Shown in pieces: positions 5,152 through 64,000 of a stretch of DNA of 64,000 bases (its first letter is position 1; the number at the start of each line of letters is the position of its first letter). The stretch comes from Leucoraja ocellata (taxonomy: Eukaryota), in assembly GCA_036785375.1 (NCBI GenBank), contig JAWMAR010000070.1, positions 7,130,001 to 7,194,000 on the forward strand, read 5' to 3'. A model generated the notes under the pieces. The model was not told the origin of the DNA. It saw only the letters and a program-made list of their open reading frames with translations, and searched no databases. A program made the position numbers and the translations under genes.

Positions 5152-5307
5152 GTGTGGTCTATAGATATTGATGACTTCAGTGGAACAAGATGTAAAGAAG
5201 GTGTTTATCCCTCGATCAGCGCATTGAAATCCCTCCTCAACATTAACAGTTCGGAACAATTATTATTTGCATCCCAAGTCAAACTGAACTGCCCTCATTT
5301 GTGTTTA

Positions 5308-7660: not shown

Positions 7661-9093
7661 TAGGAAACATTTAAAGATGTGCGAAGCACAGAGGGTGGTG
7701 GGTGCCTGGAACACGATGCTGTGGGTGGTGGAGGCAGATACAATAGTTCAGAGTCTTTATCTAAAAAATCTCATGGATATGCAGGGAATTGAGATTATGG
7801 ATCAGGTGCAGGCAGAGGAGATTAGCTGAACTTGGCAGCATGTTCAGCACGGACCTTGTGGGCCGAAGGGCCTGTTCCTGTGCTGTTCCATGTTCTATGT
7901 TACATCATCTTCTCAATCACATCTTGAGAAGAACATTTTCCAGAGGTGCCCTGGTACCACCAGTGTGACATTCATTGTATCTGCTGCAGTCAATGAGTGT
8001 GTTGTGTAGACAGCCAGAGGAGAAGATGGGATTTATGTGCAGTTTCATTTTGTAATCATTATTTATTTAATGTCATAGTGTAATAGAGTCATAGAGTGAT
8101 ACAGCGTGGAAACAGGCCCTTCGGCCCAACTTGCCCACACTGGCCAACATGTCCCAGCTACACTAGTCTCACCTGCCTGTGTTTGGTCCATATCCCTCCA
8201 AACCTGTCCTCTCCATGTACATGACTCACTGTTTCTTAAACATTGGGATCTAAATGTTGCCTCACCAACGCAAGATGACCTCCCAACCTCTATACTCCAT
8301 ACTGTGACTGATGAAGGCCAAAGTACCAAAAGCCATTTTGACCACCGTATCTATCAACTGCATCTTCAAGGAACCATGTACCTTCACTCATAGATCCCTC
8401 TGCTATACAACATTCCCCAGAGCTGGACTATTCACTGTGTAGGTCCTGCACATGTTAGAAACATAGAAACATAGAAACTAGGTGCAGGAGTAGGCCATTC
8501 AGCCCTTCGAGCCTGCACCGCCATTCAATATGATCATGGCTGATCATCCAACACAGTTTCCAGTACTTGCCTTCTCTCCATACCCTCTGATCCCCTTAGC
8601 CACAAGGGCCACATCTAACTCCCTCTTCAATATAGCCATTGAATTGGCCTCGACTACCCTCTGGTTACCCTCTCCCCAAGACTCCCCAAAACACAACACC
8701 TCACATTACTCTGTATTAAATTCCATCAACCGTTCCTCAGCCCAACTGGCCAATATTTCAGGATCCTGCTGCAATTTTTCACAACCATCTCCACTATCTG
8801 CAAAACCGCCTACTTTAGTGTCATAGAAACATAGAAAATAGGTGCAGGAGTAGAGGCCATTCGGCCCTTCAAGCCTGCACCGCTATTCAATATGATCATG
8901 GCTGATCATCCAACTCAGTATCCTGTACCAGCCTTCTCTCCATACCCCCTGATCCCTTTAGCCACAAGGGCCACATCTAACTCCCTCTTAAATATAGTCA
9001 TCTGCCTTTACTTCTGTTCCTGTTCTCAACATTTTCCACATGTTGTTCCGTCCCCGTGTGGTCATGGACAATGTTGGACACAGCTCATAGAAG

Positions 9094-9199
9094 CCGGCGA
9101 TGTTGCCCGTAGTGAGCAAGAGTTGCACAAAGTTCACACCCAACTCAATGCTGGCGTACAAAGAATCACTCACACCGGCTGTCTTCAAGAGAGTTTATT
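9094..9199 (-). terminator. Poly(A) signal AATAAA (9194-9199) plus conserved GT-rich downstream element of A1 (also 41168-41173 for A2 and 57987-57992 for A1')
   Basis: AATAAA followed by TGAAGACAGCCGGTGTGAGTGATTCTTTGT..., a block shared with the type B genes. Confidence 0.55.
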
Positions 9200-9633
9200 T
9201 CCATTAATGATACATTTACCAATGCAAGCACGATCTGTCCCATTGCACTACATTTGCCCCATATCCCCCTAAACCTTTCCCTGTCCCAAGTGTGTATTAA
9301 ATATTGTTACAATTCCCACCCCACCAGACAGTTCTATAAACCCACCGCCCCCTGAGTGAAAATGTTGCCCCTCAGGTTCCTATTAAATCTTGCCCCTCTA
9401 ACCTTAAACTTATGTCCCCCTGGTTCTTGATTCCCGTACCCCAGGTAAAAGATGTTTTGTGTTCACCCCTCTATTCCCCTCATGATGAATTAAGTGACTA
9501 CAATATAGAATGCTGTTGTTGGCCTAAGTATGTGAAGTTTATAATGATGGATGTTACTGTGTGTTTGTGCTGTCCTGCCACTGTCTGTTGCTTCTGTGAC
9601 ATGGGGGGGCCTGTGCTGGGTCAGTGTGAGGTT

Positions 9634-10146
9634 TCACATCACTGTCAGCTTGATATTTAGTCTACATTCCTCTTTGCCAGTGAACCAAGCGCAGGAATAC
9701 ATCCCAACATCACTCTTCTGTAAACCCGTGATGACCAACGAGGCATCCCGTGTCCCATCCACGTTTGTTTCCTTGAACGACCAGCGGCCGGCCCCCCCTG
9801 GATAGGTCGCACCTTTCCCTTTAGTAAACACGGCCAATGTCCCCTTCCCTTTACTCCAGGTGACAGCAAAGTTGCTGGGTCCATCCTTCCCTGTGGGTAC
9901 TTTACAGGGTAGCGTAGCAGAACCACCCTTTGCCGTCACATCCGTGTATTTCATCTTGTTCGCAGCTGGCCTAGCACCGCATTCTGGAGTATCTTGTTTG
10001 TTGACTTGTCGAGGCTCCCGTGCGTTCCACCCGGGCAAGTTTGCTTCCTCTCCCCATTCTCTGGAGATCGGACCTGTTCCAGTTGCGGAGACTTGCCACA
10101 CCATCTCCACAAGGACCATGAATCCTATCCATCTCTGCAGTCCCAT
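9634..10146 (-). CDS. Secreted single V-set Ig-domain protein, type A copy 1 (170 aa, single coding exon)
   Basis: ATG at 10146 follows a polypyrimidine-CAG acceptor. Hydrophobic leader MGLQRWIGFMVLVEMVWQVSA, pro-segment ending NAREPR/QV, and V-set motifs GGSATLPC, VTWSK, DASLVITGLQKSDVGMYSC and CRLNIKLTV. A stop follows directly, with no TM. Confidence 0.85.
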   Translation of the reverse strand: MGLQRWIGFMVLVEMVWQVSATGTGPISREWGEEANLPGWNAREPRQVNKQDTPECGARPAANKMKYTDVTAKGGSATLPCKVPTGKDGPSNFAVTWSKGKGTLAVFTKGKGATYPGGAGRWSFKETNVDGTRDASLVITGLQKSDVGMYSCAWFTGKEECRLNIKLTVM

Positions 10147-10795
10147 GTTCCTGTGGGTGAAACAATGGGTCACCTTATTGCAACTCAGTAGGATTCATGA
10201 TGACATTCCCTGAACCCGCCCAGAGTTGGGGAATCGAGAACCAGAGGACATCGGTTTAAGGCGAGGGGGGGGGGGAAAGATTTAATGGGAAACTGAGGGG
10301 TGACTTTTTTACACAAAGGGTGGAGGGTGTTTGGAACGAGCTGCCGGAAGAGGTAGTTGGGGCAGGTACTATCACAATGATTAAGAAACAGTTAGACAGG
10401 TACATTGATAGGACAGGATTAGAGGGGTAAGGGCCAAACGCAGGCAGGTGGGTCTAGTATTGATGGGACACGTTGGTGGGCGTGGGCAAGTTGGGCCGAA
10501 GGTCTCGCTGTGACTCTATGACTCCATCACTTGTCCCACCCCGGTCATTCCTCCTTCTCCCTGGTCCTGTCTAGCAGAAGGTACAGAAGCTTGAAAGCGC
10601 GCACCACCAGACTCAGGAACAGCTTCTTCCCCTCTGCTATCAGGCTTCTGAACTGGGGGAACAGTGAACAGAGACAATCCCACCCCCATCACTCACAGAC
10701 ACTTGAAGGATCCACAGGGTTGGTTACCAGCTCCGGAGTCTCCACACAGGGTGACGGGGTCGGTCTTGTTCTCATCCCCTGCCATCGCTCGCTCC

Positions 10796-10872
10796 TTTTA
10801 TACCGACTCCCGGCTTCTCCTGCCCCTCATTGTCTGTCCTCACGTACATTCAACCAATCACTGCCTCCCACG
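10796..10872 (-). promoter_or_regulatory. Promoter of gene A1: ERSE (10854-10872) and TATA box (10796-10802)
   Basis: CCAATcactgcctcCCACG on the + strand. TATAAAA on the - strand, ~650 bp upstream of the ATG. Confidence 0.6.
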
Positions 10873-13027
10873 GAGCATTGGCCGGAGTCAGCCGCGACCT
10901 CTCCACCCTCTGCCAAACGTGTCGTTGCATCAGCCGTTAACGTTTAACAAGAACAACGTCATCCCAGCTGCCAGCGGCCAACCAGGCGCCCCACACATCC
11001 TGCTTGTGTCTCCACCACGTCTCGCTTTGGCCACCCATCGGACCAGATGTCCCAGCCACGCCACGTCACCACCACAGCCCTTGGCACCTGCGCTGGTTCC
11101 ACAGTTTATACTCAATCTGAGCCGGCAGCTGGGATGGCGTTGGATCAATTCTTCCTTCCCAACAACCATCAGGCTGTTGAACACGACACGACACTGAGGT
11201 CAACGATGAACGTCTATGGAATGTCCAAGGTTGCACTAATGCCCCTGTCCCACTTAGGAAACCTGAACGGAAACCTCTGGAGACTTAGCGCCCCACCCAA
11301 GGTTTCCGTGCGGTTCACGGAGGTTTTTGTCTGTCTCCCTACCTGCTTCCACTACCTGCAACCTCCGGCAACCACCTGCAACCTCCGGGAACCACCTGCA
11401 ACCTCCGGGAACCTTCGGGACGAAACGTTGCCTATTTCCTTCACTCCATAGATGCTGCTGCACCCGCTGAGTTTCTCCAGCATTTTTGTGTACCTTCGAT
11501 TTTCCAGTATCTGCAGTTTCTTCTTCAACATCAAATAGAACAAGTTGTCCTACAACTTTAGGCTGTGCACGCCACACGAAAGAAGAAGTTGACATGTCTG
11601 TCCCGCCATCCCGGGTATTAACCTGGTGAACCTACGTTGCACTCCCTCAATAGCAAGAATGCCCTTCCTCAAAATGACAGTGAAGTGCTGCCTCTACAGA
11701 GACACCCAATAGACCTGATAGAATGGTATAAAATGATGAGAGGCGTAGATAGCTGAGATAACCTGAAGCAATTTCCCGAAGGCTTTGGAGACGGTGCAGA
11801 AGCAGTTCCCCAGAATGATGTCGGGATCGGAGGTTGTTAGTTATATGGACAGGTTGGATAATCTTGGATTAGTTTCTCTAGAACTTCAGATGTTGAGCGG
11901 AGACCTGACAGAAGGTAATAAAATTCTTAAGGGGTTGGACAGGCTAGATGCAGGAACGTTGTTCCCGATGTTGGGGAAGTCCAGAACTAGGGGTCACAGT
12001 TTAAGGATAAGGGGGAAATCTTTTAGGACCGAGATGAGAAAAACATTTTTCACACAGAGAGTGGTGAATGTGGAATTCTCTGCCACAGAAGGTATTTGAG
12101 GCCAGTTCATTGGCTATATTTAAGAGGGAGTTAGATGTGGCCCTTGTGGCTAAAGGGATCAGGGGGTATGGAGAGAAGGCAGGTACTGGATACTGAGTTT
12201 GATGATCAGCCATGATCATATTGAATGGCGGTGCAGGCTCGAAGGGCCGAATGGCCTCTACTCCTGCACCTATTGTCTATTGTCTACTGTCTATTGTCTA
12301 TTGAGATAGGAAACATTTAAAGATACAAGTGGAGGTAGTTACAATAGTTCAGAGACTTTATCTAAAAAATCTCATGGTCATGCAGGGAATTGAGATTATG
12401 GATCAGGTGCAGGCAGAGGAGATTAGCTGAACTTGGCATCATGTTCAGCACGGACCATGTGGGCCGAAGGGCCTGTTCCTGTGCTGTTCCATGTTCTATG
12501 TTACATAGTCTTCTCAATCACATCTTGAGAAGAACATTTTCCAGAGGTGCCCTGGTACCACCAGTGTGACATTCATTGTATCTGCTGCAGTCAATGAGTG
12601 TGTTGTGTAGACAGCCAGAGGAGAAGATGGGATTTATGTGGAGTTTCATTTTGTAATCATTATTTATTTAATGTCATAGTGTAATAGAGTCATATAGTGA
12701 TACAGTGTGGAAACAGGCCCTTCGGCCCAACTTGCCCACACTGGCCAACATGTCCCAGCTACACTAGTCCCACCTGCCTGTGTTTGGTCCATATCCTTCT
12801 AAATCTGACCTATACCTGTTCCTGTTTAACTGTTTCTTAAACGTCGGGATAGTTTCTGCCTCAACAGCGATGAGTTGACCAGAACGAGACGTGGTGGAGA
12901 CACAAGCAGGATGTGTGGGGCGCCTGGTTGGCCGCTGGCAGCTGGGATGACGTTGTTCTTGTTAAACGTTAACGGCTGATGCAACGACACGTTTGGCAGA
13001 GGGTGGAGAGGTCGCGGCTGACTCCGG

Positions 13028-13113
13028 CCAATGCTCCGTGGGAGGCAGTGATTGGTTGAATGTACGTGAGGGCAGACAATGAGGGGCAGGAGAAGCCGGG
13101 AGTCGGTATAAAA
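13028..13113 (+). promoter_or_regulatory. Promoter of gene B1: CCAAT (13028), ERSE (13037-13055) and TATA (13107-13113)
   Basis: CGTGGgaggcagtgATTGG is the reverse of CCAAT-N9-CCACG. TATAAAA follows. Conserved in all 8 copies. Confidence 0.65.
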
Positions 13114-13134
13114 GGAGCGAGCGATGGCAGGAGA

Positions 13135-13755
13135 TGAGAACAAGACCGACCCCGTCACCCTGTGTGGAGACTCTGGAGCTGGTAACCAACCCTGTGGATC
13201 CTTCAAGTGTCTGTGAGTGATGGGGGTGGGATTGTCTCTGTTCACTGTTCCCCCAGTTCAGAAGCCTGATAGCAGAGGGGAAGAAGCTGTTCCTGAGTCT
13301 GGTGGTGCGCGCTTTCAAGCTTCTGTACCGTCTGCTAGACAGGACCAGGAAGAAGGAGGAATGACTGGGGTGGGACAAGTGGTGGAGTCATAGAGTCACA
13401 GCGAGACCTTCGGCTCAACTTGCCCGCGCCCACCAACGTGTCCCCATCAATACTAGACCCACCTACCTGCGTTTGGCCCTTACCCCCCTAATCCTGTCCT
13501 ATCAATGTACCTGTCTAACTGTTTCTTAATCATTGTGACAGTACCTGCCTCAACTACCTCTTCCGGCAGCTCGTTCCAAACACCCTCCACCCTTTGTGTA
13601 AAAAAGTCACCCCTCAGTTTCCCATGAAATCTTTCCCCCCCTCGCCTTAAACCGATGTCCTCTGGTTCTCGATTCCCCAACTCTGGGCGGGTTCAGGGAA
13701 TGTCATCATGAATCCTACTGAGTTGCAATAAGGTGACCCATTGTTTCACCCACAG
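13135..13755 (+). other. Predicted non-coding exon 1 and ~550-bp intron of gene B1 (donor GTAACC 13182 or GTGAGT 13213; acceptor AG ends 13755)
   Basis: TSS expected ~30 nt after the TATA box. Consensus donors and a polypyrimidine-CAG acceptor 4 nt before the ATG. The intron is filled with LINE/SINE debris. Confidence 0.55.
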
Positions 13756-13759
13756 GAAC

Positions 13760-14299
13760 ATGGGACTGCAGAGATGGATAGGATTCATGGTCCTTGTGGA
13801 GATGGTGTGGCAAGTCTCCGTAACTGGAACAGGTCCGATCTCCAGAGAATGGGGAGAGGAAGCAAACTTGGCCGGGCGGAACGCACGGGCGTATTTCAAA
13901 GTCACCAATAAACCGCTTCCAAGATGCACGAACGAGTCAGATTCTGATGCCATCAGTCATCACCCATCACCGATTAACAAGAAGGTGCTCGTTGCATCTC
14001 TGGGCGGTTCTGTTACGTTGCCATGTAATATATCCATCCTTAAAAATCATTACAGGTTTGTTGAATGGATAAAAGATGGTGTTGAAATTGCCCATTTCCA
14101 TGAGAGAGCGTATGCGCATTATACGGGATCTGATGTTCACTGGAAGTTCGTTGATCACGACGTCTATGTGACTCAGGACGCCACGTTGCTCCTGACAGGT
14201 GTAAAAGAGGAAGATAAAGGGACGTATTCCTGTGTTTGGTCCGTGTATAGAGATAGACCGTTTTGTGAATTATTGATGCAGCTGATGATCTCTCACTGA
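13760..14299 (+). CDS. Secreted single V-set Ig-domain protein, type B copy 1 (179 aa)
   Basis: Same leader as type A. V-set motifs GGSVTLPC, VEWIKDG, DATLLLTGVKEEDKGTYSC and CELLMQLMIS. Acceptor TTGTTTCACCCACAG ends at 13755. Confidence 0.85.
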   Translation: MGLQRWIGFMVLVEMVWQVSVTGTGPISREWGEEANLAGRNARAYFKVTNKPLPRCTNESDSDAISHHPSPINKKVLVASLGGSVTLPCNISILKNHYRFVEWIKDGVEIAHFHERAYAHYTGSDVHWKFVDHDVYVTQDATLLLTGVKEEDKGTYSCVWSVYRDRPFCELLMQLMISH

Positions 14300-15142
14300 T
14301 TCAGCAGGGCCAGTCCCAGGGTCAGTAGCAAAGTCTAGTTTAGTTTAGTTTTGTTCAGAGGTACAACAGGGAAACAAGCCCTTCGGCCACAGAGTCAATG
14401 GGGACCAGTGATCACCCCATATACTAGTTCTATCCCACACACTAGATACAATTTACACTGACCAATTAACCTACAAACCTGCACGTCTCTGGGGTGTGGG
14501 ACGAAACCGGAGCACCCGGATTCCAAAGAGGAAGGAAGATTCCAAGGGGAGTTAGGGGCGACCGTGGCTGACAAGGGAAGTCAGGGACACTATCACAATA
14601 AAAGAGAACAGGTATAACGTTGCAAAGATGAGCGGAAAGCCAGGGGATTGGGTAACTCTTTTAAAGAGCAACAGAAGATAACTAAAAAAGCAATACGGGG
14701 AGAAATGATGAGGTATGAAGGTAAGATAGCCAAGAATAGTAAGGAGGATCGTAAAAGCTTCTTTAGATATGTGAAAAAAATTAGTTCAGACTAAAATTGG
14801 ACCTTTATAGACTAAAAACTTTGGATCCGTCTTCACTAAGGAGAACACAAACAATCTCCCTGATGTATTAGTGGTCAGAGGATCTGGGGACAACGGAGAG
14901 CCAGTGGATGTAGTGTACCTGGACTTGCAGGAAGTATTTGATAAGGTCCCACATAGGAGATTAGTGGGCAAAATTAGAGCACATGGTATTGGGGGAAGGG
15001 CCTGTTTCCATATTGTTTGACTCTGACACTAAGTAGGGAAGAGTAAAGGTATAAAGATGAGCAGCGTGGAAGGTGTGAGCGTGGATCGCATGCAGTGAGG
15101 AGAACTGACCTTGCTTGCTCCGGTAAATGTACGTTTAATGTA

Positions 15143-41607: not shown

Positions 41608-42123
41608 TCACTTCACTGTCAGCTTGATATTTAGTCTACATTCCTTTTGGCCAGTGAACCAAGAGCAGGAATATATCCCAATATCAGTCTCGAGTAAACC
41701 TATGATGACCAACGAGGCATCCCGTGTCCCATCCACGTTTGTATTCATGAACCTCCAGCGGCCGACCCCCCCTGGATAAGTCGCTCCTTTCCCTTTAGTA
41801 AACACGCCCAGTATCCCGCTCCCTTTACTCCAGGTGATCATAAAATCCGCGGGTCCAGTCTTCCCTGTGGGTACTTTACAGGGTAGCGTAGCAGAACCAC
41901 CCTTGCGTGCCGTCACATCCGTGAATTTCATCTTGGTCGCAGCTGGCTTAGCACCGCATTCTGGAGAACTTTGTTTTTTGACTTGTCGAGGCTCCCGTGC
42001 GTTCCACCCGGGCAAGTTTGCTTCCTCTCCCCATTCTCTGGAGATCGGACCTGTTCCAGTTGCGGAGACTTGCCACACCATCTCCACAAGGACCATGAAT
42101 CCTATCCATCTCTGCAGTCCCAT
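41608..42123 (-). CDS. Secreted single V-set Ig-domain protein, type A copy 2 (171 aa)
   Basis: Paralogue of 9634..10146 with GGSATLPC, ITWSK, DASLVIIGLLETDIGIYSC and CRLNIKLTVK. Confidence 0.85.
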   Translation of the reverse strand: MGLQRWIGFMVLVEMVWQVSATGTGPISREWGEEANLPGWNAREPRQVKKQSSPECGAKPAATKMKFTDVTARKGGSATLPCKVPTGKTGPADFMITWSKGSGILGVFTKGKGATYPGGVGRWRFMNTNVDGTRDASLVIIGLLETDIGIYSCSWFTGQKECRLNIKLTVK

Positions 42124-49525: not shown

Positions 49526-52096
49526 GTGAATGTGTGAAGATAAAGCTTTAGATGTAAAAGGGGCAAAAACGGACCACAATATGGTCGAATTCCATATTCA
49601 AATAGAAGGGGAGCAGGTTGAAACTCAGGCTAGGGTGCTTAGTCTAAATAAGGGGGATTATGAAGGTATGAGGACTGAGCTGATCAAAGTTGACTGGGAT
49701 AGCAGACTCAAGAATAAGACGGTACATGAGCAGTGGTGTACGTTTAAGGGTATACTGTATAATCTTCAAGAAAAATTTATTCCTATGAAGAAAAAAAGGG
49801 GTAAGGGTAAGAACAGTCAGCCATGGCTCAGTAAAACTATAAAGGATAGTATTCGGCTGAAAGCAAGGGCATATAAGGTAGCCAGAGATAGTGGGAGGGT
49901 AGAGGATTGGGAAGCATTTAAAGGTCAGCAAAAAATAACTAAGAGATTAATTAAGACGGGGAAAATAGATTATGAAAGGAATTTAGCGAACAACATAAAA
50001 ACTAATAGTAAGAGTTTTTATAGCTATATAAAAAGAAAAAGGGTGGCTAAGGTGAACGTTGGTCCATTGGAGGGTGAGACTGGAGAGTTGTTGGTGGGGA
50101 ACATGGAAATGGCAAAGGCATTAAACGAGTATTTTGTATCAGTCTTCACCATAGAAGACACAAAAAATATTCCAACGCTGGATAAACAGGGGGCGGTAGG
50201 AATGGAGGAGCTAAATACTATTAAGATCACCAAGGAGGTGGTATTAGGGAAATTAATGAGACTGAAGGAGGATAAATCCCCTGGGCCTGATGGATTACAT
50301 CCAAGGGTCTTGAGGGAGATAGCGGTGGGGATTGTGGATGCATTGGTGATAATTTTCCAAAACTCCCTGGAGGCAGGAACGGTCCCAGTGGATTGGAAAA
50401 TGGCCAATGTAACACCTATATTTAAAAAAGGAAGTAAACAGAAGGCGGGTAACTATAGACCGGTTAGTCTAACATCGGTGGTGGGTAAAATGTTAGAGAC
50501 AATTATTAAAGAAACACTAACGGGGCACTTGGATAAACATGACTTCATCGGACAGAACCAGCATGGTTTTGTGAAGGGGAAGTCCTGTTTAACGAATCTG
50601 CTCGAATTCTTTGAGGAAGTAACAACCCGGGTGGATAAAGGGGAACCGGTGGATGTGGTATACTTGGACTTCCAAAAGGCTTTTGACAAGGTGCCACATA
50701 AGAGACTATTGCTAAAAATAAAAAATTATGGGATTGGGGGTAATATATTAGCATGGGTAGAGGATTGGCTAACAAATAGGAAGCAGAGAGTGGGGATAAA
50801 TGGTTCATACTCGGGATGGCAACCGGTAACTAGCGGGGTTCCGCAGGGGTCGGTGCTGGGACCCCAGTTGTTCACAATTTATATAAATGATTTGGAGGAG
50901 GGAACCAAGTGTAATATATCAAAATTTGCGGACGATACAAAAATGGGAGGAAAAGTAGGGGATGAGGAGGATAGGAAGAGTCTGCAAAAGGATATAGATA
51001 AGCTAGGTGAGTGGGCAACAACTTGGCAGATGAAATTTAATACTAATAAATGTGAAGTCATTCACTTTGGGAAAAAAAATGATAGGGCAAGTTATTTTCT
51101 AAATGAGGAGGAGCTGCGTTGTAATGCAACGCAAAGGGATCTAGGGGTATTAGTACATGAATCACTGAAAGTTAGTATGCAGGTGCAGCAAGCAATCAGG
51201 AAGGCCAATGGAGTTTTGGCCTTTATTGCTAGGGGGATTGAGTATAAAAACACGGAGGTCTTGCTGCAGCTGTACACAGTATTAGTGAGACCACATTTGG
51301 AATACTGTGTACAGTTCTGGGGTCCATACTTAAGAAAGGATGTACTAGCCCTGGAGGCAGTGCAGCGAAGGTTTACAAGATTAATTCCTGCAATGAGGGG
51401 ATTGACATATGAGGAAAGGTTAAGTAGGCTGGAACTCTACTCTTTGGAGTTTAGAAGAATGAGAGGCGATCTCATTGAAACATATAAGATCGTGAGGGGC
51501 CTTGATCGGGTGGATGCACCGAGGATGTTCCCAATGATCGGGGAAACTAGAACTAGGGGACATAGTTGCAGAATAAGAGGGGGCTCTTTTAAAACTGAGA
51601 TGAGGAAGAACTTCTTCACCCAGAGGGTGGTTAATTTATGGAATTCACTGCCCCAGGGAGCAGTGGAAGCAGAAACTTTAAATATATTTAAGACAAAAAT
51701 AGATGTTTTTTTAGCTGCCAAGGGGATAAGGGGCTACGGGGAGAGGGCAGGGATATGGACCTAGGTATGGTTAGTATAGTAAGACCTGAGTGATCTCCTG
51801 GACAAGTGTCGATCGCCTGGATTGGGGTCGGAGAGGAATTTCCCGGATTTTTTTCCCGAATTGGACCTGGGTTTTTATCCGTTTTTTTGCCTCCCCCAGG
51901 AGATCACGAGGTTCTTGGGGTGGAGAGGGGTGATAGCGGTATAAGGGGGAGGGTAGTGTCTTGTGTTCTGTGTCTTGTGTCTACTGTTTGTGGGTAAGTG
52001 TGTCTGTTTAGTGTTCAGCCATGAGCGAATGGCGGTGCGGGCTCGACGGACCTGGTGGTCTACTCTCGCACCTACTTTCTATGTTTCTATGTTTCT
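49526..52096 (+). mobile_element. Young 5'-truncated CR1-clade LINE with uninterrupted ORF2/RT fragment (49530-51764, 744 aa)
   Basis: RT motifs [28 protein letters not shown] and KFADD. (TTTCTATG)n tail. AAGGT TSD (49521-49525 and 52097-52101). Absent at the paralogous site near 3304. Confidence 0.92.
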
Positions 52097-55000
52097 AAGG
52101 TAGATGAAAAATTGTTTTATGACTTAAAAAAGGGGGTTTGAGGGAACTCACAATGAGGGATGAAAGGTGAGAAGATAAAGTAGATTGGGGAAGAGAACAT
52201 ATTTGGAGAATTGAATATTTAGGTGGGGAGAGCCTCTTTGGATATAATCGGATTAAAGGATAAATTCACAGGGAAGTGTTAAGAAGGGACTGGAGATACT
52301 GGAGGATCAAAGGGGGACAAAAGTGCTGGAGAAACAGCTGGTGAACAAGATTCACAACTTTTTATTGATACAGGAAAAGCTGCTCTGTCCACCCCCTGGA
52401 GAGTGGGGGAAAGCCACCTACAGGCCCTGGGCAATTAACTAATTATGTATGGTCGGCAATTAACCCATGTCTTGCCAGATCTACATTCCCAGGTTGGAGG
52501 AGTTTTTGCTGGAAACCAGTGACCAAGGCCATAAAGGCTATACGATGGGGGTGCTGGGACAAGAAGAAATTGAGACTGTTGAAAGAAACAACCAAGTGTT
52601 GCTAACAACATGAACTGCTGTAAAGATGAAAGATCATCGTCGCTGGATACATTTGATTGACTGTGAACAGTTTGTGGAAACAAGGACGATGGGCTATTGA
52701 TGCTCCCTTTATTCTGGGGTGGCCCAGCCCACATGGACTGAACTTTCTTCAGAATGGCAAACTTGCAGACTAACCTACATTTAAAGGATGGTACACACCT
52801 CCTTTTAAACAAGATTGAAGTCAAACATGACAAGCGCAGCAAAGATACCCTGACTACGGACAGTAAGAGGTCTGCAAAGGCCAGTTAAATCTACCTGTTT
52901 TTGCCACAACCAAGGCACTGGTGTATATTAAGGAAACAGTATATTTGTGACAGGGCATTGTTATGTTGCAAATGCAGTGCCACACAAGAGAAGCATGAAC
53001 CAGTTACACCAGCACACAGGGAATTCCAAATGAAGCCGAATAAAGGCTGAGCAATTTTTATGAACCTTTTCCTGTCCTATGGTAGTATCTTAGTGTCACA
53101 TCCGGGGGAGGTTGGTGGCCATTTAAAATGTTTGGAGGGACTTGTGAAACGATTGTCCACTATGAATTGATTGTGCTACTAGTGTACTATTAATTTGTCT
53201 GATGAGATGCTTATCGTCTTTCGTATGTACTCAGGAAGGACTGCAGTTGTTATCAAAATTTTGATAAAAGGATGGAATGATGAAGCCGAATTTTAGTTAA
53301 AAATATAAGAAGATATTAAATTGGCTTCTGGGCTAGCTTACAGCTTATATTTAGTGTCAAATTAAACTTTCCTCAGGTTGCGGGGTGTGTGAGATAACAT
53401 TGTCTCCCAAGTGAAGGAGCTAGAGAGATATCTTTGAAAGTAAGATGCCATAAACCAAATGACCAATGTTTATGGGGGAGGAGGCAATAAAGGAAGAGAG
53501 AAATAGACAGTCACATCTTTGTAAACAAATGACCTATGTTTATGAGGGACCAAATGACAGAGGAAGCAGCGAAAAGAGCTAGGGTGGTCTATTTGGAGAT
53601 AAGGCAAATGGCCAATGTTTTTAGTATATCTTGTACCATGTTAAAAAAAGGTTTGATGTGATGCATTCTGTGGAAACCTTTTCCAGTACCTCTGACCATG
53701 ACTAATGTCTGTGGAATGTGATAAGGGGACAAAAAAACCCTATTTAAGGCAATGTAATTCTGTTGTTAAGGGGAGGTGGCTGAGCACAGTCAAGTGTCTG
53801 TGTTGGTCACTTGACTGGAGTTCTCCCTCCCTTCCATCGGCCGATGTTAAGTAAAGTTTTGAACTGGTCTACCAAACAGTTTGTGTGGTGTCTGTTTATT
53901 AAGAAGCGAACCTGGTTTAGTAGTTAAGATAAGTAGCTTTTTCAGTGTGGTCTATAGATATTGATGACTTCAGTGGAACAAGATGTAAAGAAGGTGTTTA
54001 TCCCTCGATCAGCGCATTGAAATCCCTCCTCAACATTAACAGTTCGGAACAATTATTATTTGCATCCCAAGTCAAACTGAACTGCCCTCATTTGTGTTTA
54101 AGAAGGAACTGCAGATGCTGGAAAATCGAAGGTAGACAAAAGTGCTGGAGAAACTCAGCGGGTGCAGCAACATCTATGGAGCAAAGGAAATAGGCAACGT
54201 TTTAGGACGAAACCCTTCCGGGTTTGGCCCGAAACGTTGCCTATTTCCAGAAGGGTTTTGGGACGAAATGTTGCCTATTTCCTTTGCTCTATAGATGCTG
54301 CTGCACCCGCTGAGTTTCTCCAGCATTTTTGTCTTCTCTTACTTGTTCCAATCCAGAATATTTTAACAGGTCTGAGCAGCAAAGATGTGCCATGGAGTTG
54401 CCTTTAGCTGAGTTGAGTCGAGTTGACTTGAGTTTAGTTCAGATTTGTTTAGATTTATACAATGGTATATGGACACACTGATCTGTTCTGTATTTGTGCC
54501 TACTATGTTCTGTTGTGCTGAAGCAAAGCAAGAATTTCATTGTCCTATCAGGGACACATGACAATAATCTCTCTTGAACACTTGAACTTGAGTGATCACC
54601 CGTAAACTAGTTCTAACCTACACACAAGGGACAATTTACTGAAGCCAATTAACCTACAAACCCGCACGTCTTTGACATCTGTGAGGAAACTGTAGCACCT
54701 GGGAGAAACCCTCACGGTCATAGGGAAAAAGTACAACCACCGTACAGACAGTACCTACAGTCAGCATTGAACCCGGGTCACTAGCGCTGTACGGCAGCAA
54801 CTCTACTGCTGTATCACTGAGCCTCCCTTACATTGGCCTCTTGCACAGTTGCAGCAGCTGATTAGAGTCCAGTTTTGACCCTTGTTGGGATTGTGCAGAA
54901 ACATAGAAAATTGGTGCAGGAGGAGGCCATTCGGCCCCTCGATCCAGCACCGCCATTCAATATGATCATGGCTGAACATCCTAAATCACTACCACTTTCC

Positions 55001-58000
55001 TGCTTTCTCCCCATATCCCTTGATTCCGTTAGCACTAAGAGCTTAATCTAACTCTCTCTTGAAAACATCCAGTGAATTGGCCTCCACTGCCTTCTGTGGC
55101 AGAGAATTCCACAGATTCACAATTCTCTGGGTGAAAATGTTTTTTTCATCTCAGTCCTAAATGGCCGACACCTTATTCTTAAACTGTGTGACCACTGGTT
55201 CTGGACTCCCCCAACATCGGGAATATTTTTCCTGCACCTATCTAGTCTGTCCGATCCCTTAAGAATTTTATATGTTTTTATAAATATGTTCCAGTCTCAT
55301 CCTAAATTCCAGTGAATACAAGCACAGTCGATCCATTCTTTCGTCATATGTCAGGGGTGGAAGATTGCAACCTTCACGAGGTCCACCCTGTTTCGACTAA
55401 TGCAATCAATTCGACGTGCACAAACGGAAGATCAAATAGAACAAAGGTAGACAAAAATGCTGGAGAGACTCAGCGGGTGCAGCAGCATCTATGTAGCAAA
55501 GGAAATAGGCAATGTTTCGGAACGAAACCCTTCTGGAAATAGGCAACGTTTCAAGCCAAAACCCGGAAGGGTTTCGGCCCGAAACGTTGCCTATTTCCTT
55601 CGCTCCATAGATGCTGCTGCACCCGCTGAGTTTCTCCAGGATTTTTGTGTACCTTCGATTTTCCAGTATCTGCAGTTTCTTCTTCAACATCAAATAGAAC
55701 AAGTTGTCCTACAACTTTAGGCTGTGCACGCCACACGAAAGAAGAAGTTGACATGTCAGTCCCGCCATCCCGGGTATTAACCTGGTGAACCTACGTTGCA
55801 CTCCCTCAATAGCAAGAATGCCCTTCCTCAAGATGACAGTGAAGGGCCGCCACTACACAGACACCCAGTAGACCTGATAGAATGATATAAAATTATGAGA
55901 GGCGTAGATAGCTGAGATAACCTGAAGCAATTTCCCGAAGGCTTTGGAGACGGTGCAGAAACGGTTCCCCAGAATGATGTCGGGATCGGAGGTTGTTAGT
56001 TATATGGACAGGTTGGATAATCTTGGATTGGTTTCTCTAGAACTTCAGATGTTGAGCGGAGACCTGACAGAAGGTAATAAAATTCTTAAGGGGTTGGACA
56101 GGCTAGATGCAGGAACGTTGTTTCCGATGTTGGGGAAGTCCAGAACAAGGGGTCACAGTTTAAGGATAAGGGGGAAATCTTTTAGGACCGAGATGAGAAA
56201 AACATTTTTCACACAGAGAGTGGTGAATCTGTGGAATTCTCTGCCGCAGAAGGTAGTTGAGGCCACAGTTCATTGGCTTTTTTTAGGAGGGAGATAGATG
56301 TGGCCCTTGTGGCTAAAGGGATCAGGGGGTATGGAGCGAAGGCAGATACAGGATACTGAGTTGGATGATCAGCCATGATCATATTGAATGGCGGTGCAGG
56401 CTCGAAGGGCCGAATGGTCAACTCCTGCACCTATTGTCTATTGTCTATTGAGATAGGAAACATTTAAAGATGTGCGAAGCACAGAGGGTGGTGGGTGCCT
56501 GGAACACGATGCTGTGGGTGGTGGAGGCAGATACAATAGTTCAGAGTCTTTATCTAAAAAATCTCATGGATATGCAGGGAATTGAGATTATGGATCAGGT
56601 GCAGGCAGAGGAGATTAGCTGAACTTGGCAGCATGTTCAGCACGGACCTTGTGGGCCGAAGGGCCTGTTCCTGTGCTGTTCCATGTTCTATGTTACATCA
56701 TCTTCTCAATCACATCTTGAGAAGAACATTTTCCAGAGGTGCCCTGGTACCACCAGTGTGACATTCATTGTATCTGCTGCAGTCAACGAGTGTGTTGTGT
56801 AGACAGCCAGAGGAGAAGATGGGATTTATGTGCAGTTTCATTTTGTAATCATTATTTATTTAATGTCATAGTGTAATAGAGTCATAGAGTGATACAGCGT
56901 GGAAACAGGCCCTTCGGCCCAACTTGCCCACACTGGCCAACATGTCCCAGCTACACTAGTCTCACCTGCCTGTGTTTGGTCCATATCCCTCCAAACCTGT
57001 CCTCCCCATGTACATGACTCACTGTTTCTTAAACATTGGGATCTAAATGTTGCCTCACCAACGCAAGATGACCTCCCAACCTCTATACTCCATACTGTGA
57101 CTGATGAAGGCCAAAGTACCAAAAGCCTTTTTGACCACCGTATCTATCAACTGCATCTTCAAGGAACCATGTACCTTCACTCATAGATCCCTCTGCTATA
57201 CAACATTCCCCAGAGCTGGACTATTCACTGTGTAGGTCCTGCACATGTTAGAAACATAGAAACATAGAAACTAGGTGCAGGAGTAGGCCATTCAGCCCTT
57301 CGAGCCTGCACCGCCATTCAATATGATCATGGCTGATCATCCAACACAGTTTCCAGTACCTGCCTTCTCTCCATACCCTCTGATCCCCTTAGCCACAAGG
57401 GCCACATCTAACTCCCTCTTCAATATAGCCATTGAATTGGCCTCGACTACCCTCTGGTTACCCTCTCCCCAAGACTCCCCAAAACACAACATCTCACATT
57501 ACTCTGTATTAAATTCCATCAACCGTTCCTCAGCCCAACTGGCCAATATTTCAGGATCCTGCTGCAATTTTTCACAACCATCTCCACTATCTGCAAAACC
57601 GCCTACTTTAGTGTCATAGAAACATAGAAAATAGGTGCAGGAGTAGAGGCCATTCGGCCCTTCGAGCCTGCACCGCTATTCAATATGATCATGGCTGATC
57701 ATCCAACTCAGTATCCTGTACCAGCCTTCTCTCCATACCCCCTGATCCCTTTAGCCACAAGGGCCACATCTAACTCCCTCTTAAATATAGTCATCTGCCT
57801 TTACTTCTGTTCCTGTTCTCAACATTTTCCACATGTTGTTCCGTCCCCGTGTGGTCATGGACAATGTTGGACACAGCTCATAGAAGCCGGCGATGTTGCC
57901 CGTAGTGAGCAAGAGTTGCACAAAGTTCACACCCAACTCAATGCTGGCGTACAAAGAATCACTCACACCGGCTGTCTTCAAGAGAGTTTATTTCCATTAA

Positions 58001-58426
58001 TGATACATTTACCAATGCAAGCACGATCTGTCCCATTGCACTACATTTGCCCCATATCCCCCTAAACCTTTCCCTGTCCCAAGTGTGTATTAAATATTCT
58101 TACAATTCCCACCCCACCAGACAGTTCTATAAACCCACCGCCCCCTGAGTGAAAATGTTGCCCCTCAGGTTCCTATTAAATCTTGCCCCTCTAACCTTAA
58201 ACTTATGTCCCCCTGGTTCTTGATTCCCGTACCCCAGGTAAAAGATGTTTTGTGTTCACCCCTCTATTCCCCTCATGATGAATTAAGTGACTACAATATA
58301 GAATGCTGTTGTTGGCCTAAGTATGTGAAGTTTATAATGATGGATGTTACTGTGTGTTTGTGCTGTCCTGCCACTGCCTGTTGCTTCTGTGACATGGGGG
58401 GGCCTGTGCTGGGTCAGTGTGAGGTT

Positions 58427-58939
58427 TCACATCACTGTCAGCTTGGTATTTAGTCTACATTCCTCTTTGCCAGTGAACCAAGCGCAGGAATACATCCCAA
58501 CATCACTCTTCTGTAAACCCGTGATGACCAACGAGGCATCCCGTGTCCCATCCACGTTTGTTTCCTTGAACGACCAGCGGCCGGCCCCCCCTGGATAGGT
58601 CGCACCTTTCCCTTTAGTAAACACGGCCAATGTCCCCTTCCCTTTACTCCAGGTGACAGCAAAGTTGCTGGGTCCATCCTTCCCTGTGGGTACTATACAG
58701 GGTAGCGTAGCAGAACCACCCTTTGCCGTCACATCCGTGAATTTCATCTTGTTCGCAGCTGGCCTAGCACCGCATTCTGGAGTATCTTGTTTGTTGACTT
58801 GTCGAGGCTCCCGTGCGTTCCACCCGGGCAAGTTTGCTTCCTCTCCCCATTCTCTGGAGATCGGACCTGTTCCAGTTGCGGAGACTTGCCACACCATCTC
58901 CACAAGGACCATGAATCCTATCCATCTCTGCAGTCCCAT
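58427..58939 (-). CDS. Secreted single V-set protein, type A copy 1' (segmental duplicate of 9634..10146)
   Basis: Differs from A1 by 3 aa (Y>F, K>I, I>T). Offset 48793. Confidence 0.85.
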   Translation of the reverse strand: MGLQRWIGFMVLVEMVWQVSATGTGPISREWGEEANLPGWNAREPRQVNKQDTPECGARPAANKMKFTDVTAKGGSATLPCIVPTGKDGPSNFAVTWSKGKGTLAVFTKGKGATYPGGAGRWSFKETNVDGTRDASLVITGLQKSDVGMYSCAWFTGKEECRLNTKLTVM

Positions 58940-59588
58940 GTTCCTGTGGGTGAAACAATGGGTCACCTTATTGCAACTCAGTAGGATTCATGATGACATT
59001 CCCTGAACCCGCCCAGAGTTGGGGAATCGAGAACCAGAGGACATCGGTTTAAGGCGAGGGGGGGGGGGAAAGATTTAATGGGAAACTGAGGGGTGACTTT
59101 TTTACACAAAGGGTGGAGGGTGTTTGGAACGAGCTGCCGGAAGAGGTAGTTGGGGCAGGTACTATCACAATGATTAAGAAACAGTTAGACAGGTACATTG
59201 ATAGGACAGGATTAGAGGGGTAAGGGCCAAACGCAGGCAGGTGGGTCTAGTATTGATGGGACACGTTGGTGGGCGTGGGCAAGTTGGGCCGAAGGTCTCG
59301 CTGTGACTCTATGACTCCATCACTTGTCCCACCCCGGTCATTCCTCCTTCTCCCTGGTCCTGTCTAGCAGAAGGTACAGAAGCTTGAAAGCGCGCACCAC
59401 CAGACTCAGGAACAGCTTCTTCCCCTCTGCTATCAGGCTTCTGAACTGGGGGAACAGTGAACAGAGACAATCCCACCCCCATCACTCACAGACACTTGAA
59501 GGATCCACAGGGTTGGTTACCAGCTCCGGAGTCTCCACACAGGGTGACGGGGTCGGTCTTGTTCTCATCTCCTGCCATCGCTCGCTCC

Positions 59589-59665
59589 TTTTATACCGAC
59601 TCCCGGCTTCTCCTGCCCCTCATTGTCTGCCCTCATGTACATTCAACCAATCACTGCCTCCCACG
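59589..59665 (-). promoter_or_regulatory. Promoter of A1' (ERSE 59647-59665, TATA 59589-59595)
   Basis: Same cassette as A1. Confidence 0.6.
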
Positions 59666-61827
59666 GAGCATTGGCCGGAGTCAGCCGCGACCTCTCCACC
59701 CACTGCCAAACGTGTCGTTGCATCAGCCGTTAACGTTTAACAAGAACAACGTCATCCCAGCTGCCAGCGGCCAACCAGGCGCCCCACACATCCTGCTTGT
59801 GTCTCCACCACGTCTCGCTTTGGCCACCCATCGGACCAGATGTCCCAGCCACGCCACGTCACCACCACAGCCCTTGGCACCTGCGCTGGTTCCACAGTTT
59901 ATACTCAATCTGAGCCGGCAGCTGGGATGGCGTTGGATCAATTCTTCCTTCCCAACAACCATCAGGCTGTTGAACACGACACGACACTGAGGTCAACGAT
60001 GAACGTCTATGGAATGTCCAAGGTTGCACTAATGCCCCTGTCCCACTTAGGAAACCTGAACGGAAACCTCTGGAGACTTAGCGCCCCACCCAAGGTTTCC
60101 GTGCGGTTCACGGAGGTTTTTGTCTGTCTCCCTACCTGCTTCCACTACCTGCAACCTCCGGCAACCACCTGCAACCTCCGGCAACCACCTGCAACCTCCG
60201 GGAACCTTCGGGACGAAACGTTGCCTATTTCCTTCACTCCATAGATGCTGCTGCACCCGCTGAGTTTCTCCAGCATTTTTGTGTACCTTCGATTTTCCAG
60301 TATCTGCAGTTTCTTCTTCAACATCAAATAGAACAAGTTGTCCTACAACTTTAGGCTGTGCACGCCACACGAAAGAAGAAGTTGACATGTCTGTCCCGCC
60401 ATCCCGGGTATTAACCTGGTGAACCTACGTTGCACTCCCTCAATAGCAAGAATGCCCTTCCTCAAAATGACAGTGAAGTGCTGCCTCTACAGAGACACCC
60501 AATAGACCTGATAGAATGGTATAAAATGATGAGAGGCGTAGATAGCTGAGATAACCTGAAGCAATTTCCCGAAGGCTTTGGAGACGGTGCAGAAGCAGTT
60601 CCCCAGAATGATGTCGGGATCGGAGGTTGTTAGTTATATGGACAGGTTGGATAATCTTGGATTAGTTTCTCTAGAACTTCAGATGTTGAGCGGAGACCTG
60701 ACAGAAGGTAATAAAATTCTTAAGGGGTTGGACAGGCTAGATGCAGGAACGTTGTTCCCGATGTTGGGGAAGTCCAGAACTAGGGGTCACAGTTTAAGGA
60801 TAAGGGGGAAATCTTTTAGGACCGAGATGAGAAAAACATTTTTCACACAGAGAGTGGTGAATGTGGAATTCTCTGCCACAGAAGGTATTTGAGGCCAGTT
60901 CATTGGCTATATTTAAGAGGGAGTTAGATGTGGCCCTTGTGGCTAAAGGGATCAGGGGGTATGGAGAGAAGGCAGGTACTGGATACTGAGTTTGATGATC
61001 AGCCATGATCATATTGAATGGCGGTGCAGGCTCGAAGGGCCGAATGGCCTACTCCTGCACCTATTGTCTATTGTCTACTGTCTATTGTCTATTGAGATAG
61101 GAAACATTTAAAGATACAAGTGGAGGTAGTTACAATAGTTCAGAGACTTTATCTAAAAAATCTCATGGACATGCAGGGAATTGAGATTATGGATCAGGTG
61201 CAGGCAGAGGAGATTAGCTGAACTTGGCATCATGTTCAGCACGGACCTTGTGGGCCGAAGGGCCTGTTCCTGTGCTGTTCCATGTTCTATGTTACATCAT
61301 CTTCTCAATCACATCTTGAGAAGAACATTTTCCAGAGGTGCCCAGGTACCACCAGTGTGACATTCATTGTATCTGCTGCAGTCAATGAGTGTGTTGTGTA
61401 GACAGCCAGAGGAGAAGATGGGATTTATGTGGAGTTTCATTTTGTAATCATTATTTATTTAATATCATAGTGTAATAGAGTCATAGAGTGATACAGCGTG
61501 GAAACAGGCCCTTCGGCCCAACTTGCCCACACTGGCCAACATGTCCCAGCTACACTAGTCCCACCTATCCACGTTTGGTCCATATCCTTCTAAATCTGAC
61601 CTATACCTGTTCCTGTTTAACTGTTTCTTAAACGTTGGGATAGTTTCTGCCTCAACTGCGATGAGTTGACCAGAACGAGACGTGGTGGAGACACAAGCAG
61701 GATGTGTGGGGCGCCTGGTTGGCCGCTGGCAGCTGGGATGACGTTGTTCTTGTTAAACGTTAACGGCTGATGCAACGACACGTTTGGCAGAGGGTGGAGA
61801 GGTCGCGGCTGACTCCGGCCAATGCTC

Positions 61828-61904
61828 CGTGGGAGGCAGTGATTGGTTGAATGTACGTGAGGGCAGACAATGAGGGGCAGGAGAAGCCGGGAGTCGGTAT
61901 AAAA
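61828..61904 (+). promoter_or_regulatory. Promoter of B1' (ERSE 61828-61846, TATA 61898-61904)
   Basis: Same cassette as B1. Confidence 0.6.
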
Positions 61905-62552
61905 GGAGCGAGCGATGGCAGGAGATGAGAACAAGACCGACCCCGTCACCCTGTGTGGAGACTCCGGAGCTGGTAACCAACCCTGTGGATCCTTCAAGTG
62001 TCTGTGAGTGATGGGGGTGGGATTGTCTCTGTTCACTGTTCCCCCAGTTCAGAAGCCTGATAGCAGAGGGGAAGAAGCTGTTCCTGAGTCTGGTGGTGCG
62101 CGCTTTCAAGCTTCTGTACCTTCTGCTAGACAGGACCAGGGAGAAGGAGGAATGACCGGGGTGGGACAAGTGATGGAGTCATAGAGTCACAGCGAGACCT
62201 TCGGCCCAACTTGCCCGCGCCCACCAATGTGTCCCCATCAATACTAGACCCACCTGCCTGCGTTTGGCCCTTACCCCTCTAATCCTGTCCTATCAATGTA
62301 CCTGTCTAACTGTTTCTTAATCATTGTGATAGTACCTGCCCCAACTACCTCTTCCGGCAGCTCGTTCCAAACACCCTCCACCCTTTGTGTAAAAAAGTCA
62401 CCCCTCAGTTTCCCATGAAATCTTTCCCCCCCCCTCGCCTTAAACCGATGTCCTCTGGTTCTCGATTCCCCAACTCTGGGCGGGTTCAGGGAATGTCATC
62501 ATGAATCCTACTGAGTTGCAATAAGGTGACCCATTGTTTCACCCACAGGAAC

Positions 62553-63092
62553 ATGGGACTGCAGAGATGGATAGGATTCATGGTCCTTGTGGAGATGGTG
62601 TGGCAAGTCTCCGCAACTGGAACAGGTCCGATCTCCAGAGAATGGGGAGAGGAAGCAAACTTGGCCGGGCGGAACACACGGGCGTATTTCAAAGTCACCA
62701 ATGAACCGCTTCCAAGATGCACGAACGAGTCAGATTCTGATGCCATCAGTCATCACCCATCACCGATTAACAAGAAGGTGCTCGTTGCATCTCTGGGTGG
62801 TTCTGTTACGTTGCCATGTAATATATCCATCCTTAAAAATCATTACAGGGTTGTTCAATGGAAAAAAGATGGTGTTCAAATTGCCAGTTTCCATGAGAGA
62901 GCGTATGCGCGTTATACGGGGTCTGATGTTCACTGGAAGTTCGTTGATCACGACGTCTATATGGCTCAGGACGCCACGTTGCTCCTGACAGGTGTAAAAG
63001 AGGAAGATACAGGGACGTATTCCTGTGTTTGGTTCCATTATAGAGATAGACCGTTTTGTGAATTATTGATGCAGCTGATGATCTCTCACTGA
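62553..63092 (+). CDS. Secreted single V-set protein, type B copy 1' (segmental duplicate of 13760..14299)
   Basis: Offset 48793 from B1. Intact ORF with 11 aa differences in the V domain. Confidence 0.85.
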   Translation: MGLQRWIGFMVLVEMVWQVSATGTGPISREWGEEANLAGRNTRAYFKVTNEPLPRCTNESDSDAISHHPSPINKKVLVASLGGSVTLPCNISILKNHYRVVQWKKDGVQIASFHERAYARYTGSDVHWKFVDHDVYMAQDATLLLTGVKEEDTGTYSCVWFHYRDRPFCELLMQLMISH

Positions 63093-64000
63093 TTCAGCAG
63101 GGCCAGTCCCAGGGTCAGTAACAAAGTCTAGTCTAGTTTAGTTTCGTTCAGAGGTACAACAGGGAAACAAGCCCTTCGGCCACAGAGTCAATGGGGACCA
63201 GTGATCACCCCATATACTAGTTCTATCCCACACACTAGATACAATTTACACTGACCAATTAACCTACAAACCTGCACGTCTCTGGGGTGTGGGACGAAAC
63301 CGGAGCTCCCGGATTCCAAAGAGGAAGGAAGATTCCAAGGGGAGTTAGGGGCGACCGTGGCTGACAAGGGAAGTCAGGGACACTATCACAAATGCATTTC
63401 GTTGTCTCTGTTCTGTACACTGACAATGACAATTAAATTGAATCTGAATCTGATAAAAGTGAACAGGTATAACGTTGCAAAGATGAGCGGAAAGCCAGGG
63501 GATTAGGTAACTCTTTTAAAGAGCAACAGAAGATAACTAAAAAAGCAATACGGGGAGAAAAGATGAGGTATGAAGGTAAGATAGCCAAGAATAGAAAGGA
63601 GGATCGTAAAAGCTTCTTTAGATATGTGAAAAAAATTAGTTCAGACTAAAATTGGTCCTTTATAGACTAAAAACTTTGGATCCGTCTTCACTAAGGAGAA
63701 CACAAACAATCTCCCTGATGTACTAGTGGCCAGAGGATCTGGGGACAACGGAGAGCCAGTGGATGTAGTGTACCTGGACTTGCAGGAAGTATTTGATAAG
63801 GTCCCACATAGGAGATTAGTGGGCAAAATTAGAGCACATGGTATTGGGGGAAGGGCCTGTTTCCATATTGTTTGACTCTGACACTAAGTAGGGAATAGTA
63901 AAGGTATAAAGATGAGCAGCGTGGAAGGTGTGAGCGTGGATCGCCTGCAGTGAGGAGAACTGACCTTGCTTGCACCGGTAAATGTACGTTTAATTTAAAT

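Follow-up and report, generated by a model that had tools for sequence, protein, structure and literature searches.

Replacement-rich V domains in a skate array of predicted secreted, nectin-like genes

Introduction

How do two neighbouring genes, carried in nearly identical duplicated DNA, come to differ mainly by amino acid replacements? The question is raised by B1 and B1', two immunoglobulin (Ig) V-type genes in a stretch of 64,000 nucleotides from Leucoraja ocellata (GCA_036785375.1, contig JAWMAR010000070.1, positions 7,130,001 to 7,194,000 of the forward strand; hereafter the window). A sequence-only reading had taken them for recent duplicates with a strong excess of non-synonymous change and proposed positive selection, such as an arms race with a ligand. 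It named three outcomes that would speak against this: dN/dS not above 1 after correction, conversion from a third, older paralogue, and assembly error. The explanation that we favour, and consider probable, is that B1 and B1' are older variants sitting in near-identical blocks and shuffled within an array, that their differences sample diversifying selection across the whole family, and that the product is a soluble decoy or recognition protein built on a nectin/PVR-like domain.

Genes of the window and the array

The genes of the window, and the parts of B1, are as follows (positions are those of the window).

62553..63092, + strand: coding exon of gene B1, 179 aa, with a stop directly after the V domain and no transmembrane segment in frame
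B1 residues 1-21 (about): predicted signal peptide, assigned by eye from the sequence
B1 residues 39-42: R-X-X-R (RNTR) of the putative pro-segment, likewise assigned by eye
B1 linker: contains Cys56
B1 residues 74-179: Ig V-set domain with Cys89, Cys158 and Cys169
62772..63089, + strand: V domain of B1, separated from that of B1' by 16 nt (11 codons replaced, 2 silent)
61898..62552, + strand: 5' cassette of B1; RefSeq models connect these two exon pieces likewise
61898-61904, + strand: TATA box of the cassette, from sequence
ending at 62003, + strand: predicted exon 1 of B1, from sequence
62004-62548, + strand: GT-AG intron of B1, from sequence
52097..63391, + strand: 11.3-kb duplicated block holding A1 and B1; second copy at 3304-14598, 99.27% identical overall
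13760..14299, + strand: coding exon of gene B1', 179 aa, with a V domain resembling those of the two Leucoraja erinacea B-type proteins
58427..58939, - strand: gene A1, 170 aa, A subfamily
9634..10146, - strand: gene A1', 170 aa
20898..21434, + strand: B2-type paralogue, 178 aa
27400..27936, + strand: B2-type paralogue, 178 aa
35062..35543, + strand: broken paralogue, frame lost after about codon 26, with a stop further on
41608..42123, - strand: A-type paralogue, 171 aa

At the edge of the duplicated block lies an intact reverse-transcriptase-like frame of 744 aa (49530-51764, + strand), which we take to be of a LINE family; many related fragments are spread across the window.

The array to which these genes belong counts 57 copies and spans G000:C70:6.99-7.52 Mb (about 530 kb). 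Two outlying, more diverged copies, one of them truncated, are found at G000:C16:1774987 and 1786233, with promoters about 91% identical. A frame of at least 165 codons is kept by 51 of the 57 copies, which yield 40 different coding sequences, and six are broken; 24 copies are B-type. Eight of 10 paralogues tested match the B1 5' cassette at 98.3-99.4% identity, against 56-95% identity in their V domains, and within the 964 kb searched the promoter piece matches only array copies, the C16 copies and a few orphan copies. A repeat at an offset of 316 kb (G000:C70:7005580-7107506 and 7321851-7423803, mostly about 99.4% identical) begins near an assembly gap at 7312930 and could be a tandem duplication or an uncollapsed haplotype, as one assembly cannot separate paralogues from alleles. 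The latter would alter the copy number; identical coding sequences were merged before the tests described below.

The array and a large GH18 chitinase cluster (G000:C70:6.93-7.96 Mb; L100-L124 and inside the array itself) are intermingled. Duplication of the Ig-V genes has carried along a triple-CBM14 exon and four of the chitinase copies, and the CBM14 exons near V genes go with the chitinase exons. Two small leucine-rich-repeat genes to the left of the cluster (L085:4045-5160, - strand; L092:2612-3733, + strand) presumably resemble fibromodulin and PRELP, the genes on either side of CHIT1/CHI3L1 in human 1q32.

Differences between B1 and B1'

Alignment of B1 with B1' returns exactly the 11 replaced V-domain codons of the sequence-only reading (F100V, E102Q, I104K, E109Q, H112S, H120R, V137M, T138A, K153T, S161F and V162H; 14 nt). 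Its count of about two silent changes is also exact, at codons 82 and 123, the latter being the only silent site inside 62820-63060, as is its tally of three replacements and no silent change for A1 and A1'. Three further B1/B1' replacements lie N-terminal to the V domain, at codons 21, 42 and 51. The placement of many changes on the C, C' and F elements holds as well: in the AlphaFold model, 8 of the 11 fall on the C-C'-C''-F side, with residues 100, 102 and 104 on strand C, 109 and 112 on C', 120 on C'', and 161 and 162 at the end of strand F. Residues 137 and 138 are in the DE segment and 153 is at the EF/F junction.

Short-read data bear on whether the differences are real. Among Logan contigs of run X1, which may be the source sample, B1 positions 62820-62951 are matched with 0 differences at a depth of 89, and a second form with eight differences from B1 over the same positions is present at a depth of 61. 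B1' likewise has eight differences from B1 here and is likened to the second form by this number. With an exact B1 and a form of B1'-like divergence both in short reads, assembly error is an unlikely source of the differences.

The strong excess claimed for the pair does not hold up. By site counting (kappa 1-3), the V-domain dN/dS is 1.6-2.1 with a binomial p of 0.15-0.25; the whole coding sequences give p 0.10-0.18, and A1/A1' gives p 0.41. The pairwise ratio, a check that the sequence-only reading had proposed, is above 1 without being significant, and we rejected it as proof of selection. V-domain replacements do exceed the rate in nearby non-coding sequence (p 3e-4 counting bases, 0.007 counting codons and 0.035 counting nine events). 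Across B-type copies, however, distinct changes per site amount to 0.05-0.07 in non-coding sequence vs 0.14 at silent V sites, so the flanks are homogenised and their divergence was rejected as a neutral yardstick.

Age of the gene unit

61169..63038, + strand: older gene unit of B1/B1', about 5 times the divergence of the enclosing block (1.8% non-coding vs 0.34%)

Flanks were compared for 6 of the 8 B1-type copies, those having the upstream block in common. Between B1 and B1', divergence is 5.03% in the V domain and 1.80% in the near flank (-1450 to -1), falling to 0.34% further out, between -10.4 and -1.45 kb. The fivefold step in non-coding divergence at about -1.4 kb indicates a gene unit about five times as old as the block, and the B1/B1' gene unit thus predates duplication of the surrounding block. 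The description of the surrounding duplicate as nearly identical is correct beyond about 1.4 kb upstream and fails over the near 1.45 kb. Neither are the two genes each other's recent duplicates: the closest duplicates of B1 are at C70:7234052 and 7473093, with 0.07-0.08% far-flank divergence, and B1' changes partner along its own flank. The proposed comparison with flanking divergence therefore yields a gene unit older than its block, in flanks that are themselves homogenised.

These observations make it very improbable that B1 and B1' were born with the recent 11-kb duplication and that B1 then fixed about ten selected point mutations. The non-coding rise starts 1.4 kb before the gene, B1 has closer sisters than B1', and the non-coding yardstick that gives the replacements their excess is homogenised. 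In addition, one sister of B1 with 0.07% flank divergence differs from it by four bases in codons 161-162, which in such close sisters points to conversion. The polarity of the changes is nevertheless in keeping with a burst in B1. Both Leucoraja erinacea B-type proteins (P0001 and P0157) resemble B1'; polarised by P0001, B1 is derived at 10 sites vs 1 (sign test p 0.012), and by P0157 at 8 vs 2 (p 0.11). The excess over the near non-coding rate and four B1 states absent from all 13 non-B1 B-type sequences (V100, Q102, S112 and A138) point the same way. A burst of selection after recent duplication is not supported, and this account is largely refuted; all that remains of it is a faster rate of change in the B1 lineage, spread over a longer period.

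Recombination and probable conversion within the array

62967..63053, + strand: exact tract of about 87 nt (codons 139-167), identical to the paralogue at G000:C70:7003207 and covering T153, F161 and H162

Conversion from a third paralogue is borne out in part, as the B1 codon is found in other paralogues for 6 of the 11 replacements. Three of these lie inside the 87-nt tract, which is likely a conversion tract, to judge from its length, in one direction or the other; with each of the other 12 non-B1 B-type sequences, exact identity runs for 43-66 nt at most. The B1 codons for K104, Q109 and R120 are present in 6/13, 1/13 and 12/13 non-B1 B-type sequences, respectively. Only the B1 side has the four states named above, and at V137 it is B1' that changed.

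Recombination is also evident across the B alignment, where incompatibility between adjacent informative sites is rarer than after shuffling (permutation p 0.007) and the incompatible sites require a minimum of 14 events. The copies at 7234052 and 7479614 are mosaics of B1 and B1' states. Mosaic copies and shared tracts, as in a positively selected array with conversion, are thus both present.

Probable selection across the family

The distinct-change count, in which each distinct codon change is scored once with no gene tree, was applied to the 19 different coding sequences of the 24 B-type copies. Their V domains have 78.5 non-synonymous changes on 234 sites vs 11.5 synonymous changes on 81, a ratio of 2.35 (p 0.003), or 2.04 (p 0.008) when the most-synonymous paths are taken. 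The leader and pro-segment are far more conserved than the V domain (ratio 0.54). In null simulations with dN/dS = 1 and conversion, the observed ratio (2.24 in that setting) was reached in 33/7241 runs, and in 6/3897 when rate hot spots were added. The B result weakens to p 0.025-0.064 when only single-step changes are used and to p 0.03-0.05 when the BC loop is omitted.

Codon models (custom code, not PAML; 18 different B-type sequences) give a one-ratio dN/dS of 3.18 for the B-type V domains and reject dN/dS = 1 at p 4e-5. Maxima of the neutral simulations are 2.70 in one set of 90 and 1.74 in another of 60, both below 3.18. The ratio is 2.48 with five separate segment trees and 2.8 once the 12 codons requiring multi-base steps are dropped; the B2-type genes alone give 3.44 and the A subfamily 2.05. 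Over the B subfamily, then, dN/dS stays above 1 with conversion allowed for, contrary to the first of the outcomes that would have spoken against selection.

The site models are less secure. Likelihood-ratio test (LRT) statistics are 81.8 for M1a/M2a, 85.1 for M7/M8 and 81.6 for M8a/M8. These statistics, among them the M7/M8 comparison that the sequence-only reading had proposed, survive a mild null, whose site LRT maximum is 36.4 in 40 runs. Under a harsh null with dN/dS = 1, hot spots and conversion, however, 81.8 is exceeded in 4/60 runs. The site-model LRT is therefore unsafe and individual selected sites are tentative; these statistics were set aside as evidence for selection. In the mature domain, dN/dS above 1 is robust to recombination as an overall ratio, and not as a site LRT.

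A further check is non-circular. All 10 alignable B1/B1' sites vary among the B2-type genes, against a background of 29/105 (P 7e-7); in a strict version that excludes possible copies of B1 states, the figures are 6/10 vs 16/105 (P 7e-4). Overlap with the variable sites of the A subfamily (8/11, P 0.09) is not significant. Strands A' and E and the CC' turn are invariant in B-type copies.

A different explanation needs no positive selection: under relaxed constraint and conversion, redundant copies would drift and hot spots would cluster the changes. Several results are compatible with it. Neither the pair nor the six different B1-type sequences taken alone (distinct-change p 0.26; one-ratio dN/dS 1.51, LRT 4.6) reach significance, hot spots with conversion can produce the observed site LRT, and 6/57 copies are broken. 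Furthermore, a control from the same array, eight exon pieces of four chitinase copies (near C70:7055000, 7274000, 7371000 and 7525000), has a replacement excess of its own, with 18 replacements vs 5 silent changes and a ratio of 1.28 that does not differ from that of the B V domain (p 0.33). Young duplicates in this array may accordingly be relaxed in general, and the young chitinase copies themselves could be either relaxed or selected, as far as their sequences tell. On the other side, the one-ratio dN/dS of 3.18 lies above 150/150 neutral simulations, the distinct-change ratio is reached by <0.5% of null runs, the result recurs in the B2-type and A-type subsets, and 51/51 intact copies keep at least four cysteines and R-X-X-R. 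We consider relaxation unlikely as the whole explanation.

Positive selection thus finds its support, with moderate confidence, at the level of the family and not in the B1/B1' comparison from which it was first proposed. The replacement excess across the 57-copy family likely reflects selection on the predicted binding face; an arms race with a ligand, as originally suggested, may be inferred behind it.

Protein, fold and relatives

Intact copies have a hydrophobic leader and one V-set domain followed by a stop. The six window proteins scanned score above the Pfam cut-off for V-set and contain a single V-set domain and no CBM14. Secretion and cleavage of the pro-segment are predicted from these features.

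The predicted B1 model has a mean pLDDT of 79. Its closest folds are nectin-1, P0, CAR and nectin-3 (Z 14.6-14.1, rmsd 1.8-2.1, 102-107 residues aligned); the nectin-1 match (Z 14.6, rmsd 2.1, 107 aligned) is tied with P0 and CAR. PVR is also among the near folds, and identity to PVR in the fold alignments is about 23-24%. B1 Y163 aligns with PVR F128, and B1 residues 111-118 with the AX6G site of PVR. Surface exposure of the variable sites was judged from strand position and the PVR alignment, and the model suggests that the varying C-C'-C''-F face would bind a partner. A B1 homodimer prediction run without an alignment gave no verdict (score 0.00) and does not enter the argument.

A word-based search returned seven relatives, from Leucoraja and Rhinoraja only. 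Among the best 150 matches of a profile search of 1.84 billion proteins, Narcine P0054 is one more full-length single-domain relative; the others are mostly long proteins with several matched stretches (six looked up). The Narcine (electric ray) homologue XP_069798310.1 is 28% identical, has the same layout, is annotated nectin-1-like and keeps both the AX6G and TYP motifs. Given a Narcine relative of the same layout, the family is, on sequence grounds, at least batoid-wide. A search of the skate genome with P0054 gave no match closer than the array; G000:C1288:252001-252345 matches the Narcine V domain weakly (E 1e-4) within a 459-codon frame that possibly encodes a membrane-bound relative. 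The ESM Atlas returned generic V-set clusters only. Among the papers listed from open-licence PMC/bioRxiv main texts, none describes the family in its title or the opening of its abstract; transcriptome supplements may list these genes.

Comparison with known systems

Members of the nectin/PVR family carry additional Ig domains and a membrane anchor. They are the best match of the skate V domains in both sequence and fold; B1 is an Ig V-set domain with a nectin-like fold, and the skate variable sites align to the lock-and-key face. This interface is formed by the AX6G and T(F/Y)P motifs (PMC10486284, in excerpt). B1 lacks the AX6G lock on C'-C'' (it has A-x6-Y); the 14/51 intact copies that have this lock are all A-side, and none of the 51 carries a T(F/Y)P key at the FG turn. 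Unlike nectin/PVR, the B1 frame stops right past strand G, with no C2 domains or anchor; RefSeq models of its relatives end at the same point, though alternative splicing is possible. The skate signal, pro-segment and V domain also occupy a single exon, with an extra invariant cysteine pair. The skate copies therefore resemble secreted nectin-like domains with a remodelled interface and fall outside nectin/PVR membership.

In rearranging Ig/TCR/IgNAR V segments, the V exon is separate from the leader, has a recombination signal after it and is joined to J and C; the skate leader and complete V domain (through strand G) are encoded in one exon and followed by a stop, in this respect unlike a V segment. 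MHC class I, KIR/LILR, CEACAM/PSG and teleost NITR genes form birth-and-death immune arrays with conversion and diversifying selection. Their tandem Ig-domain genes, mosaic copies and dN/dS >1 on the binding face recall the skate array; the likeness is one of general features, and no membrane receptor or signalling motif was seen in the skate genes.

In its general plan the array also resembles the Hessian fly SSSGP genes, described in the excerpted account as a cluster encoding small secreted proteins, in which promoter, intron and signal peptide are conserved and the mature region has dN/dS >1; its authors attribute this to positive selection plus concerted homogenisation (PMC2955719). The conserved 5' cassette and diversifying mature region are common to both. 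The SSSGPs of that account are effectors of an insect, lack an Ig fold, share no ancestry with the skate genes and number seven in 15 kb, vs 57 in about 530 kb.

Protochordate VCBPs are secreted, germline-encoded V-type domains tied to chitin and gut bacteria in the excerpted source (PMC4757023). The skate V genes have a comparable setting among chitinase and CBM14 exons, a link by position only. [quoted passage not shown]

Interpretation

The near-identical blocks most likely came to hold different gene units through unequal crossing-over and gene conversion in the 57-copy array, and the B1/B1' differences are a likely sample of diversifying selection on a predicted ligand-binding face. Conversion would hold one promoter and leader constant over the array; selection would retain new surface variants, which conversion would recombine. 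This may have produced a repertoire of soluble decoys or recognition proteins, derived from a nectin/PVR-like domain and directed at a partner that changes and is probably foreign; the selecting agents would be microbes or viruses met at a secretory surface.

Selection could also be real and the partner a self molecule, as in a reproductive, chemical-signal or self-recognition role or with a receptor of the TIGIT/CD226 kind. The nectin-like fold with its varying lock-and-key face would suit such a role, as would the faintly tissue-restricted look of exon reads missing from 4/5 partly read RNA runs. The presence of 40 different coding sequences in one assembly would better suit a varied foreign target, and we regard a self partner as quite improbable.

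A bolder form of the preferred reading, unlikely in its entirety, holds that in skates one ancestral secreted nectin-like domain gave rise to dozens of germline-encoded soluble decoys, with selection and conversion acting on the virus- and receptor-binding face under one homogenised promoter within a chitinase cluster. Such a system would be innate, non-rearranging and antibody-like, and convergent with protochordate VCBPs.

The underlying process is textbook, and B1/B1' illustrates how dN/dS between array neighbours misleads. The interest lies in the family, an unnamed and batoid-wide set whose V domains are predicted to be secreted and have dN/dS of 2-3. Should its partner be microbial, the family would form a germline-encoded set of soluble recognition proteins in a jawed vertebrate, alongside its antibodies. 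Only a few surface residues separate B1, B1' and two natural mosaics, 7234052 and 7479614, which makes them ready reagents for partner finding and footprint mapping.

Expression and annotation

Among the sequencing runs listed as containing the sequence, none is an RNA run. Five RNA runs, of which 1-25% each was covered, are labelled as a different organism from the best-matching runs and provide no evidence for or against expression: four have no reads on either exon, and run X13 has a depth of about 1 on exon 2. The peptide joined across exons 1 and 2 is present in the Logan protein P0161, from a 900-base contig; this hints at a spliced transcript in some run.

The start ATG of the Leucoraja RefSeq models (window 61898-61917) lies only about 10 bases past the TATA box and is probably upstream of the transcription start. 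The 31-residue N-terminal extension of these models may therefore be an annotation artefact.
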